DNA of 28,383 bases, from the UHGV virus genome UHGV-0136520, one strand, 5' to 3'. The notes beneath the pieces were generated by a model, which worked only from the letters and a program-made list of their open reading frames with translations, ran no database searches and had not been told where the DNA came from. Made by a program: the position numbers and the translations under genes. Below, one piece after another: positions 4,256 to 7,013 of this stretch. This stretch comes from a virus. Within the stretch, counting starts at the first letter, position 1; each line of letters opens with the position of its first letter.

Positions 4256-4627
4256 TCACTGAGCCGCTTTAAGCTTTCCATCCACCGCGCCAGTGATCCC
4301 GAACAGCTGACCCTGATCTTCCTGCAGGATAGTGAGCTTCCCCCCTTTGTTGACCCACATCGGGGTTTCGGTTGTGTCCTCTTCGGAGGCTTTACCACGC
4401 GGTGTCGGGGTGCTGTAGTTCAGCTTGTGCTTGATCTTGACGCGCTTCTCTTCAACGGAATTACCCATACGCTCAAAATCAAATGTGAGGACTACTTTGC
4501 CTTTGTTGCCGTTGTTCAGAACGCCAAGCGCGGTGGTATTAAGTGCTGCCGCGATTTTGTTCATGAACACGCCGGCATCCAGTTCGCCAAGAAAATCTGG
4601 CACTACGGTCATGCGGTCATTACTCAT
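4256..4627 (-). CDS. Hypothetical early protein, 123 aa (YfdP-like by position)
   Basis: Track ORF with SD GAGGGT 6 nt upstream of ATG 4627. First credible gene of the leftward operon. No N-like arginine-rich motif. Confidence 0.45.
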   Translation of the reverse strand: MSNDRMTVVPDFLGELDAGVFMNKIAAALNTTALGVLNNGNKGKVVLTFDFERMGNSVEEKRVKIKHKLNYSTPTPRGKASEEDTTETPMWVNKGGKLTILQEDQGQLFGITGAVDGKLKAAQ

Positions 4628-5538
4628 GCTTTTACCCTCGTTAAGGCGGCTGCAACCGCCGAACTTTCTCCATACACAACAGAGAAGGGCACCTGCATTG
4701 GTCGGCGGCTTGCAGAGACCGCTTTCTTTTTGCCCGGGTGGATTGGGTTATGAGCCCGTCGCCCGGTGATGCCCTTTTCTGTTGCGTAAAAAGGGCGGTA
4801 CCGAGGTAGAACATTATCTTCGTCCCCCTTGCATAAGGTTGAAGACCTGGTACCGCCAAGACTACACACAGCAATACTGGAACTACGGTTATCACAGTCC
4901 TAAGCGTGATTTGGTTGTGGTTGCTGGTGCTGAACTCCAGCTCAGTGGCGCGGTGTTTCAATATCGTAACCGCCCGTTCCATCCGCGTTCGATCAGTCCG
5001 TATGCTCGCTTAGAACGTTTCGCCTGCTTATCTTTTCTCAACCGTTTGACGGTCAGCCCCGCCATTTACCACAACGAAGAGAGCACTGCCGGTGTTCGAA
5101 TCGAACGAACCTTTTCCCTGCCCAACCCTCCCAACTGAATGGGACTGTCTGGAATCGAACCAGCACTTATGCCTTGCTCGTCAATGCTCTCGTCGTTGCG
5201 CCCTGAAAAAGGCTGGCGGTTACCGGACAAGTGGGAAAACACCGGGCCGCCAGAACAGGGAGTTACTTGTTATTGCTTTAGCCTGCTTTTAACCACATCA
5301 GGCGCGGTGGTAGGTATCTTCGGGCGGGGCGCTGGCGACCAACCAGCTACAACCCCTACGGTATTTACACTCCACGCCGTGGGTTAACGGCTCCGTATCG
5401 TGGCTGAGTTTCTGTTGCTGGTGGTCAAGCCAGCTTCGCAACCCCTCCCGAAGACACCTGTCAACGAATCATCCGGTTATTCATATGCCACCGGCGGCTA
5501 CTTCGTGGGCGTCCTGCCTGTTCGCTGTTGATGAATTA

Positions 5539-5567
5539 AATATACCTGTGAGTAATTTTTGTGTAAA
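5539..5567 (-). promoter_or_regulatory. Candidate leftward early promoter (PL-like): TTTACA-17 nt-TATATT on the minus strand
   Basis: Minus-strand -35 TTTACA (5567-5562) and -10 TATATT (5544-5539) with a 17-nt spacer, inside an AT-rich block at 5520-5640. Hexamers read by eye only. Confidence 0.3.
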
Positions 5568-5679
5568 TACCTATTGGTATATTTTTATTTACCTTAATGG
5601 CAACTACTTGCTTTTAATTGGATTTTATTTAAGTAGGTGATGCGTGTTATGCTCAAAAAAACACCAGAAAGGGCTTGGT

Positions 5680-5886
5680 ATGGAACGTGACGAACTGGAA
5701 GAAGACCGTGCGGCATTCATAGCTGGCGAGATTGGCGGCGCAGTTGTCGAATTGATAATCGGCGGAGTAGTGATTGACCGTGATGCGATCGTCGATTGTT
5801 TGGAAAGAAAACGACGTGCGGTGGGCAACGTGATCCACAAAGGTGTTCTGCGAGACGCCGCTGCTATGGTGAGAAAAGGGCAGTAA
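5680..5886 (+). CDS. Small hypothetical protein, 68 aa, convergent with cI
   Basis: ATG at 5680 with SD GAAAGGG 5 nt upstream. Product MERDELEEDRAAFIAGEIGGAVVELIIGGVVIDRDAIVDCLERKRRAVGNVIHKGVLRDAAAMVRKGQ. Ends at the shared terminator hairpin. Confidence 0.4.
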   Translation: MERDELEEDRAAFIAGEIGGAVVELIIGGVVIDRDAIVDCLERKRRAVGNVIHKGVLRDAAAMVRKGQ

Positions 5887-5910
5887 AAACCCGGCTCAGT
5901 GGCCGGGTTA
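5885..5910. terminator. Bidirectional intrinsic terminator between the small plus-strand gene and cI
   Basis: Stem CCCGGC (5890-5895), 6-nt loop, GCCGGG (5902-5907), flanked by AAAAA on one side and TTAGATGTTATTT on the other. Read on the minus strand the hairpin is followed by a U-run, so it should terminate the cI transcript. Confidence 0.55.
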
Positions 5911-5960
5911 GATGTTATTTCATTAAGAGTTAGGTCTGTTCAACTATCCAAAAATAGCAG

Positions 5961-6671
5961 TTACAGTTTATTGTAAGCTATTGATTCATGGAGCAGAGCT
6001 TTACCCATGATATACAGTTGATCCTGATTTTCTTCAGTTATATACCAGTCTTTGTACACTGGATTATCGGACAGGACTGCAAGCTGCAAGCCCTGCATTT
6101 GTAATCGCTTCACGTGGAAGTGTTGTCCGAAAACGAACGCATAAACACCGTCCACCTTGAAATTTCTTATCGAAATATCGAAAAACAACCTGTCACCAGA
6201 CTGGATGGTTGGGCACATGCTGTCGCCATCTACAGTCATTACTTTAACATCATCCTGAGAACGATTCCCGAAGAGTGAACGAGCGTGCTCAGTAGTGAAC
6301 TCAATAGCGTGTAGAACCTCAACAAACTCAGAAATCATGAAAGACCCTGGACCTGCGCTCACAGTAAGATCGAGAACTTCTACACGATAAGTGTCGATAT
6401 TGCGGGCGGGTACATCAATATCCATATTTGAGGTTGGGCCAAGACCATCCAACCATCCTCTGCTGATTTTCAAAGCATCTTCGATCTGCCGAGCCGCTTG
6501 CTCACCAATATTCCGCTTATTAGGTTTACCAACAGGGTAAAGCATCCGAGAGACAACAGTCGGATCAAGCCCTGCATTTTCAGCAAACTCTTTCTGGGTT
6601 TTATAGCGAGTTACCAACTCCTGAAGTTTGAGGCGTCGTAACTCGAAGATGTCAGGCGATTCAGTTTTCAT
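5961..6671 (-). CDS. cI: CI-type prophage repressor (N-terminal HTH, C-terminal S24 LexA-like autopeptidase), 236 aa
   Basis: C-terminal domain carries the Ser nucleophile context GDSM (DGDSMCPT) and the Lys in HVKRL, typical of S24 peptidases. Divergent from a Cro-like gene across an operator-rich spacer. Confidence 0.8.
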   Translation of the reverse strand: MKTESPDIFELRRLKLQELVTRYKTQKEFAENAGLDPTVVSRMLYPVGKPNKRNIGEQAARQIEDALKISRGWLDGLGPTSNMDIDVPARNIDTYRVEVLDLTVSAGPGSFMISEFVEVLHAIEFTTEHARSLFGNRSQDDVKVMTVDGDSMCPTIQSGDRLFFDISIRNFKVDGVYAFVFGQHFHVKRLQMQGLQLAVLSDNPVYKDWYITEENQDQLYIMGKALLHESIAYNKL

Positions 6672-6770
6672 AATTCCATCTTACTTAAATTTACTTCAAG
6701 GTAAATGACTTGTGAGTATTGACATGTATTTACTTAAAGGTATATTTAATTTCCAAACATAGGAGGCGTG
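6672..6770. promoter_or_regulatory. Immunity operator/promoter region (OR-like) with a rightward PR-like promoter
   Basis: Repeated imperfect palindromes TTTACTTCAAGGTAAA (6690-6705) and TTTACTTAAAGGTATA (6729-6744), plus a partial copy at 6681-6693. PR-like -35 TTGACA (6719-6724), 16-nt spacer, -10 TATATT (6741-6746). AGGAGG at 6761-6766 precedes the cro-like ATG. Confidence 0.55.
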
Positions 6771-7013
6771 ATGGAAACGTTAAGAAATTACCTAAACGCT
6801 TTGTCGCTCGAAAAACAGAGAGAATTTGCAGCACGATGCGAAACCTCTCTTGAGTACCTGCGTAAAGCCATTAGCAAAAAGCAAAAGTTGGGAGCTGCTC
6901 TATCTGTTTCTATCGAAACACAATCTGGCGGCTCAGTTAGTAGAAAAAATCTTCACCCGGATGATTGGGAAAAGATTTGGCCTGAACTGGAGCATAAAAA
7001 AACAGCGGCATGA
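6771..7013 (+). CDS. Cro-like small HTH regulator, 80 aa
   Basis: First gene rightward of the operator region. ATG 6771 follows SD AGGAGG. Small protein with an HTH-like segment (ARCETSLEYLRKAISKKQKL). Confidence 0.5.
   Translation: METLRNYLNALSLEKQREFAARCETSLEYLRKAISKKQKLGAALSVSIETQSGGSVSRKNLHPDDWEKIWPELEHKKTAA

Follow-up and report, generated by a model that had tools for sequence, protein, structure and literature searches.

Two described systems are of particular use for comparison with the locus studied here. The put RNAs of phages HK022 and HK639 are cis-acting processive antiterminators that need no protein, folded RNAs of about 70 nucleotides (nt) which lie directly after the leftward early promoter PL, in an operon without an N gene and with terminators downstream, a position relative to PL that is taken in lambda by nutL/N. 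We know of neither an N protein nor a recognised put RNA in the temperate enterobacterial phages SfV, ST64B, phiNP, LLS, e14 and their relatives. The second system is the dicBF operon of the Escherichia coli prophage Qin, in which the small RNA (sRNA) DicF arises through termination as well as processing of a polycistronic transcript by RNases III and E (PMC10448788). Here we describe a locus of the virus genome UHGV-0136520 (28,383 nt, the whole stretch being called the window) in which positions 4628-5538 are the untranslated early-left leader of PL in a temperate phage, without a credible protein gene. The leader begins with a conserved RNA structure, named R1. The explanation we favour, in which R1 is a processivity element within an untranslated PL leader that is also a polycistronic sRNA precursor, is given a probability of roughly 0.55. 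The elements that define the leader are:

5539-5579 including operators, minus strand: PL, with -35 hexamer TTTACA (5562-5567) and -10 hexamer TATATT (5539-5544), a 10/12 sigma-70 match.
5460-5528, minus strand: R1, a 69-nt PL-proximal RNA motif about 5 nt after the predicted start, from covariation and a covariance model.
4625-4639, minus strand: leader boundary with the ribosome-binding site GAGGG and the ATG (4627), from the open reading frame (ORF) list and a PHROG match.
4256-4627, minus strand: first early-left gene, encoding 123 amino acids (aa) of the YfdP/Sb37 family (phrog_204, E = 1e-41).

PL is a leftward, repressor-controlled promoter. Operator-like TACC-N4-GGTA sites flank it at 5543-5554 and 5568-5579, and the same motif is found at the rightward promoter (6692-6703 and 6731-6742), with 11 sites versus 4.8 expected. 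The candidate PL which an earlier reading of this DNA (hereafter the original prediction) had placed at 5539-5567 is confirmed by the hexamer match and by the sites shared with the rightward promoter. Its transcription start is predicted near 5532. The 908-nt minus-strand RNA folds with -349 kcal/mol (z = -5.2 versus shuffles; plus strand z = -2.2), and the sub-domains 5066-5202 and 4664-4790 reach z = -4.6 and -5.05. The unusually long structured, untranslated leader of about 900 nt that had been proposed is supported. The same unannotated gap separates the Sb37 and repressor genes in ST64B and phiNP, and the stretches homologous to the segment carry no annotation in ST64B, phiNP, SfV and RefSeq E. 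coli.

The absence of a credible protein gene between 4628 and 5679 was borne out by the ORF list and by Pfam and PHROG searches. All ORFs of the gap are short and mutually overlapping, including one of 113 aa on the minus and one of 118 aa on the plus strand. The eight longest had no Pfam match; in PHROG they gave nothing but partial matches, to very small families without a known function (phrog_33599, E = 3e-9 over 23 aa; phrog_36251, E = 5e-10 over 35 aa), coinciding with conserved nucleotide modules; no N-like gene was found among the gap ORFs in these searches. A 35-aa basic peptide (4958-5065), previously named as the best coding candidate, failed the codon test against phage 15G, its only distant homologue: of the 12 substitutions seven hit the first, four the second and one the third codon position, the frame is broken by two indels and the stop codon has been lost. 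On its substitution pattern it was also rejected as an N-like protein. That the segment is a decayed protein gene, as had been considered, or a real small gene such as this peptide is extremely improbable. The 113-aa and 118-aa ORFs and the partial PHROG matches could be taken in its favour, but the matches are confined to the conserved RNA modules, substitutions are not codon-like, many base-pair changes throughout the segment are compensatory, the homologous stretches are unannotated, and no protein homology was obtained in Pfam and PHROG (large protein-database and frameshift-tolerant searches were not made).

PHROG 33599 and 36251 match only the translated conserved RNA modules (window 4732-4802 and 5092-5200) and are probably ORFs mis-called on noncoding RNA. 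Gene STMMW_20251 of D23580 is annotated 162 nt longer than sb37 of ST64B, so that it covers the D3 helix and the terminator described below. For annotation this means that several PHROG families and some gene starts, such as this one 162 nt upstream of the Sb37 ATG, appear to be mis-called on RNA modules.

R1 is a real, conserved RNA structure. An alignment of six phages revealed near-invariant 70 nt right behind very different promoter and operator sequences, with compensatory changes in a 5-bp hairpin stem, and an exact 18-mer scan of IMG/VR yielded more than 120 contigs. The structure consists of a closing helix P1, in which AGCGAA (5521-5526) pairs with UUCGUU (in the 5460s), a small hairpin with a 3-bp stem (GGC-AGGAC-GCC; GGC/GCC), an invariant stretch CCCACGAAGUAGCCG, and helix P2 (CCGGU/ACCGG) with the 12-nt loop GGCAUAUGAAUA, followed by AUGA. 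About 30 unpaired bases, including CCCACGAAGUAGCC and GGCRYAYGAA, are invariant across Enterobacterales, Aeromonas and T5-like phages, the invariance of the stretch covered by the seeding 18-mer being partly due to ascertainment. Over 49 distinct sequences, 94.6% of the cells of the two helices are paired and 10 of the 11 pairs have changed on both sides, giving a covariation score of 0.68 versus 0.18 for shuffled alignments, while slid controls were paired at 17-45%. Indels are confined to the loop of the small hairpin (Photorhabdus and Providencia versions), which supports this third, 3-bp hairpin, and P1, the small hairpin and P2 all appear in the minimum-energy fold. The covariance model scores 94 bits in the window and finds one copy per phage. 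R1 is an apparently undescribed motif, the antiterminator RNAs of King et al. (2011, J Bacteriol) lying outside the comparison.

R1 always stands behind PL-type promoters, and these are of many immunity types. Its roughly 100 distinct upstream flanks all contain -35/-10 hexamers and represent more than 15 operator types; therefore R1 is the first RNA made from PL in many immunities. It is present in 1,382 of 5,426 complete E. coli genomes (25%), with no annotation beneath the match. In the K-12 prophage e14 it is located between ymfK (cohE) and ymfJ (NC_000913 1,202,109-1,202,178, minus strand, 72.5 bits; with its PL up to 1,202,240), and further copies are found in SfV, SfII, ST64B, phiNP, ZF40, mEp237 and Aeromonas pAEv1818, in genomes of Photorhabdus, Xenorhabdus, Klebsiella, Enterobacter and Citrobacter, and in the T5-like Providencia phage PR1, where it lies in the terminal repeat just behind a strong promoter. 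An 18-mer scan of GTDB gave mostly chance matches in GC-rich genomes, among which the R1 model picked 12 true loci.

The region behind R1 is rich in terminators. One or more sense-strand intrinsic terminators occur within 1 kb after R1 in 88 of 106 distinct loci (83%), at 1.6 per kb in the first kb versus 0.20 per kb at 2.2-3.2 kb downstream, as counted by a fold-based scan (a simpler scan missed terminators with large loops). The boxA consensus GCUCUUUAACAA is found behind R1 in 26 of 127 loci, at +31/32; its position is +10 in PR1 and +78 in locus L089 of our collection. In these 26 loci (including L015, L017, L033, L056, L060, L105 and L113) R1 is followed at about 10-50 nt by a hairpin AAGCG-CCCUACAGGA-CGCUU and, behind it, by an rrn-type boxA without mismatch, GCUCUUUAACAAUCUGG; in PR1 (L130 2470-2490) it is CGCUCUUUAAAAAU that stands 10 nt after R1. 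No boxA follows R1 in the window.

From this context, namely the PL-proximal position, the terminator-rich first kilobase, the lack of an N-like ORF and the boxA of some loci, we infer that R1 may act in antitermination. Leftward transcription from the repressor-controlled PL would begin near 5532, and the first 70 nt would fold into R1 as a compact two-helix RNA. By itself or together with host Nus factors, R1 might then act in cis on the elongating RNA polymerase, which would thereby pass two intrinsic terminators (with U-tracts that end at 5206 and 4788) and 900 nt of untranslated RNA on its way to the first gene. In function R1 would correspond to HK022 putL or lambda nutL/N, without an N gene. 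That it is a cis-acting antitermination element is the leading, unproven reading, to which we would give clearly less than even odds. About as tentative is the wider proposal that put and EAR are joined by R1 as a third, so far unrecognised class of cis-acting RNA, which makes E. coli RNA polymerase terminator-resistant just after promoter escape, with or without Nus factors, and which serves as the early antitermination device of N-less lambdoid and SfV/ST64B/e14-like phages and has been borrowed by T5-like phages for their pre-early transcripts. A protein-independent antitermination or processing element, as the original prediction had suggested for the segment, is from its context the best reading for R1 and the long helices only. 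For the related phage LLS, no N homologue and only a speculated put were reported in a 2025 analysis (PMC12315714).

R1 shares with put its size, its place directly after PL and its operon context, and, beginning some 5 nt behind the predicted start, it falls into the first ~100 nt of the PL transcript, where put elements are located. In mEp237, R1 is situated in the PL-proximal leader, at the place where HK639 has its annotated putL and near a helix-turn-helix gene that is 68% identical. This is the only similar gene pair of the two phages; therefore, 'same position as putL' rests on gene order and not on DNA homology. The architectures differ: put of HK022 has the form GAACGGCGCG...CAUGCGUCGG...GGAUGA with two tandem stem-loops, while R1 is a closing helix with an internal hairpin. 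R1 was rejected as a member of the put family on sequence and model search, and the activity of put, terminator read-through that needs no protein factor and is blocked by rpoC mutations in the beta' zinc-binding domain, would be transferred to it by analogy only.

Several observations weigh against antitermination by R1. The R1 model finds nothing in HK022 (L008) or HK639 (L009) at E <= 10, and alignment shows scattered identities only. R1 occurs as a single copy without a PR-side partner, whereas HK022 has both putL and putR; HK639 has only the annotated putL. Antisense terminators are also frequent in the first kb after R1 (1.24 per kb). boxA is found in about 20% of the loci and not in the window, so R1 may not involve Nus factors, or boxA itself may antiterminate where it is present. 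R1 alone is not unusually stable (z = -0.05), and a G-U versus A-C count of 10 versus 5 gives weak support for the strand, which is assigned mainly from promoter orientation. All start, termination and processing points of this leader are predictions from sequence. In e14 and SfV, finally, R1 directly precedes an ORF as its 5' untranslated region (UTR), which leaves room for a role in mRNA stability or translation.

This last arrangement would suit a 5'-terminal stability or protein-binding element that blocks 5'-end-dependent RNase E or binds a global RNA-binding protein such as CsrA via two GGA motifs; the terminators would then be leaky and the rest of the leader a cargo of sRNAs and morons. 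Between the predicted 5' end and the beginning of P1 there are about 5-7 nt, GGA is present in the small-hairpin loop (AGGAC; AAGGAAA in Morganellaceae) and, as GGAUGA, after P2 in most variants, and the downstream neighbours of R1 are extremely varied, their first ORFs being unrelated to each other. However, neither a protective hairpin nor a CsrA site needs the ~30 invariant unpaired bases described above, the second GGA is missing from two variants, and the terminator-rich context and the association with boxA are left unexplained; we consider such a role unlikely, while giving it some weight. The same unpaired bases, together with the compact fold, the short covarying helices and the location at the 5' end of a terminator-containing leader, might be expected of a riboswitch-like aptamer that senses a ligand or signal and gates early-left transcription by host physiology. 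Such an aptamer is very unlikely: no conserved expression platform is found, the sequence after P1 being mosaic, there is no Rfam riboswitch match, and no alternative pairing with the 3' strand of P1 is conserved.

Some features would suit a nut-like role. R1 is at the position of nutL, consensus boxA is adjacent in about 20% of the loci and in PR1, small Arg-rich ORFs follow R1 directly in a few relatives, and mEp237 stems from a collection described as Nus-dependent coliphages (PMC11893012). R1 could in this case be a recruitment site for a protein antiterminator, phage-encoded elsewhere or a host factor, the RNA being inactive alone. But no protein gene is common to the R1 loci, no second, PR-side copy exists in any locus searched, and the hosts of R1 are as different as lambdoid, SfV-like and T5-like phages, which makes this role rather improbable. 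The first ORF after R1 often encodes a small ClpX-type C4 zinc-finger protein of 69-121 aa (L001, L035, L073, L080, L101, L108). In L053 and L057 it encodes a 70-aa protein with an Arg-rich N-terminus MNAAQRRKAYRKH, resembling the N-type arginine-rich motif.

Beyond R1, the leader is a mosaic of independently mobile conserved RNA modules which are found in different phages. BLAST against phages and E. coli genomes detected no full-length relative of the segment, and instead separate conserved pieces, each with its own distribution. Rfam 15 gave no match at the gathering threshold in the whole window and nothing credible at E <= 10 in 4400-5950. The segment does contain phage noncoding RNAs, but it is not the one large noncoding RNA that had been considered. 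In the direction of transcription these are:

5313-5458, minus strand: D1, a long-helix domain and candidate RNase III site.
5206-5321, minus strand: sRNA cassette 1 (sRNA1), STnc1310-like, with a predicted 5' end at 5321 and a conserved 30-mer at 5279-5309.
5069-5199, minus strand: module C (D2), a 130-nt domain (covariation, z = -4.6).
4880-5065, minus strand: module B, a rare noncoding segment containing the region of the 35-aa ORF.
4788-4875, minus strand: sRNA cassette 2 (sRNA2), DicF-like (seed conservation, terminator, z = -2.3).
4674-4787, minus strand: D3, a long-range helix of 18-23 bp between ACGCAACAGAAAAGGGCAUCACC (4765-4787) and GGUGCCCUUCUCUGUUGUGU (4674-4693).
4645-4660, minus strand: hairpin GGCGG-UUGCAG-CCGCC, located shortly before the first early-left gene's ribosome-binding site.

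In D1, an outer helix of 17 bp is formed by GGUGUCUUCGGGAGGGG (5442-5458) and CCCCGCCCGAAGAUACC (5313-5329) around a variable interior. Among 10 distinct relatives the sequence of this outer helix hardly changes, while the interiors differ and covary. Cassette 1 ends with an intrinsic terminator (CUGGCGG...CCGCCAG and a U-tract, 5206-5253). It shares with STnc1310 of ST64B its place at the first terminator after PL, the preceding D1 helix, and the terminator stem CUGGCGG/CCGCCAG with its flanks, and STnc1310 itself maps from within the 3' strand of D1 to the U-tract of the first terminator. The region of the 5' end and the terminator are shared, and the central part is different: in the window the central seed consists of ~45 nt of other sequence, including the 30-mer found in about 35 other loci. 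In Salmonella, STnc1310 is present at 100-500 transcripts per million (TPM) under most conditions and rises about ten-fold to ~2,300 TPM under peroxide or nitric oxide shock, a rise that accompanies neighbouring early genes and prophage induction. The 30-nt piece CACCGCGCCUGAUGUGGUUAAAAGCAGGCUA (window 5279-5309) folds into a hairpin (stem GCCUG/CAGGC) whose 13-nt loop is conserved, and recurs alone in its ~35 loci, such as L015 5245-5274 and SfV-like leaders, far from homologous flanks.

Module C is enclosed by a closing helix in which 5182-5199 pairs with 5069-5088 over about 20 bp, and contains T-arm-like hairpins at 5149-5163 and 5091-5111, a covarying variable hairpin at 5129-5144 and a conserved UGGGCAGGGAAAAGG stretch; among 13 sequences, 8 of its 39 predicted pairs have compensatory changes. 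It also occurs in Stx2a phages, in the Uetakevirus phages SPN1S and SPN9TCW, where it neighbours tRNA-Arg, and in Edwardsiella EPP-1. In SPN9TCW (L002 2436-2631) it directly adjoins, on the same strand, the 5' side of an annotated tRNA-Arg, outside any immunity region, which hints at module C being processed or used together with tRNAs. ST64B carries a simpler insert inside the equivalent closing helix; this suggests that the long helices are a constant frame and the interiors cargo. Module B was found only in L114 among 129 loci and is 82% identical to phage 15G.

Repeats within the segment had been noticed before, and the folds give several of them another meaning. The direct repeat GAATCGAAC is present, at 5098-5106 and 5152-5160 and not at 5092-5100 and 5150-5158 as given originally. 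The T-loop-like motifs in which it is embedded are real hairpins of the covarying module C and not tRNAs: a tRNA or tmRNA was rejected, with no gene from ARAGORN at default settings, pseudo-hits only at relaxed thresholds, and an 8.7-bit tmRNA fragment as the best match to the Rfam models. The G-run at 5116-5132 exists, and half of it is the 3' strand of the covarying hairpin, so that the G-runs are not conserved; GGGAGGG is replaced in relatives by UCUGGUG, GGCGGUG, GGUGGC and similar, and a G-quadruplex was rejected. The inverted repeats GGCGG-N6-CCGCC (4645-4660), GCCCTTTT/AAAAGGGC (4771-4796) and the 9-bp arms (4794-4857) are where they had been described. For GCCCTTTT-N10-AAAAGGGC the better reading is a terminator tail followed by the 5' strand of the 18-23 bp long-range helix D3. 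As a whole, the interpretation given in the original prediction is partly supported.

Cassette 2 combines a conserved single-stranded seed, AUUGCUGUGUGUAGUCUU (4858-4875), with a terminator formed by GGCGGUACC...GGUACCGCC and UUUUU (4788-4857). In 56 distinct relatives the seed is conserved, the terminator stems covary and the loops vary. It is followed by D3, in which the long helix has compensatory changes at 5 pairs (22 sequences) and two hairpins lie inside it, a conserved one (4734-4766) and a variable one (z = -5.05 for the domain). D3 is a candidate RNase III site and 5'-UTR remodelling element. Relatives have CGACC-UUGCAG-GGUCG or GCCCC-UGCG-GGGGC at the place of hairpin 4645-4660.

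The leader may thus represent a polycistronic sRNA precursor with two 'seed plus terminator' cassettes, sRNA1 and sRNA2. The 17-23 bp long-range helices of D1, module C and D3 bracket the cassettes and, as in dicBF, would be RNase III sites. The 3' ends of the sRNAs would result from termination and their 5' ends from cleavage of the helices; cleavage of D3 may also reshape or trim the 5' UTR of the first gene, and the sRNAs and module C may have trans-acting roles. The cassette 2 seed showed no significant complementarity to ftsZ in a crude duplex test, which lacked power, as it was non-significant for genuine DicF as well.

In one contig, L108, the terminator tail of sRNA2 and the start of the D3 helix (GGUACCGCCAUUUUUACGCAACAGAAAAGGG) are directly upstream of R1 and replace the normal PL; this leader looks rearranged or duplicated. 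Stx2a_1447 (L006 3040-3085, minus strand) has modules C and A and no R1, and its PL leader carries a covarying 10-bp hairpin, ACGGCGUAUG-GCA-CAUGCGUCGU, whose CAUGCGUCG is reminiscent of put. The same hairpin is found between PL and R1 in SfII-like contigs (L011, L042, L072) and may be another interchangeable leader element. On the PR side, ST64B (L003 5287-5475) and Stx2a_1447 (L006 5149-5337) encode isrK and C4 antisense RNA (Rfam, 64-84 bits); neither is present in the window according to Rfam.

The leader belongs to a lambdoid immunity region with the following neighbouring genes:

5680-5886, plus strand: 68-aa gene with a full-length match to phrog_3975 (E = 3e-37).
5961-6671, minus strand: LexA/CI-type repressor gene.
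6768-7013, plus strand: Cro-like gene behind a near-consensus rightward promoter (6719-6746).

Situated between the repressor gene and PL, the 68-aa gene is convergent to the former, with a terminator-like hairpin at 5888-5909. At the corresponding place HK639 carries a small plus-strand ORF, HK639_46.

Taken together, R1 is a concrete candidate for early-left terminator escape in N-less phages and may explain how lambdoid phages do without N. Since R1 is present in E. coli K-12, the question of antitermination is open to standard genetics. R1 falls outside put, nut and every Rfam family, and could prove a new class. In the seemingly 'empty' kilobase, long helices stand between sRNA cassettes in an ordered array, a design that it shares with the dicF locus, and prophage early-left leaders may be a general factory for host-directed small RNAs.

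Compared with lambda nutL/N, which has boxA-boxB and an RNase III site before N, the leader has the same position relative to PL, is long and structured and contains long helices suited to RNase III, and R1 is followed by boxA in ~20% of the relatives. In contrast, the window has no N-like ORF (ORF list, Pfam, PHROG), no boxB-type hairpin and no boxA (CGCUCUUA / GCUCUUUAACAA) near R1, so that R1 is not a nut site of the lambda type. In 26 relatives the hairpin and GCUCUUUAACAAUCUGG follow R1 in the order known from rrn leaders, but this hairpin-boxA unit is absent from the window and R1 has no counterpart in rrn leaders. An architectural parallel is the dicBF operon, likewise an early-left-type operon with a long noncoding stretch. 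Cassette 2 resembles DicF (UGGCGGUA...CCGCCCUUUUU): in both, a conserved seed and a terminator (GGCGGUA...CCGCCCUUUUU in K-12 DicF) are followed at once by a long-range helix, of ~20 bp, that precedes the next gene. The seed sequences differ and the terminator loop of cassette 2 is much larger. The Rfam DicF model (RF00039) gave 17.1 bits (E = 1.2) on 4793-4870, below its gathering threshold of 48 bits, and no match in close relatives, with 76.7 bits for K-12 DicF as positive control; cassette 2 was therefore rejected as a member of this family and retained as an architectural analogue. Like DicF it is located in a prophage early operon, has its predicted 3' end at an intrinsic terminator and is followed by a long helix, while processing would be assumed by analogy. 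STnc100 (RF02076) has no match in the window. Sub-threshold matches to it (34-40 bits versus 47) occur in SfV (L005 2054-2269), ST64B (L003 2747-2865) and the K-12 dicF-dicB spacer (L133 1933-2142), which share GUGAAUGCGGCU(C/G)AGCGCACGCGG and CACC(G/U)GGAGGCACC(C/A)GGCAC; the dicF locus and the SfV/ST64B leaders are built from related modules. The leader would work like a hybrid of an HK022 put or lambda nutL-N leader and of the dicBF operon.

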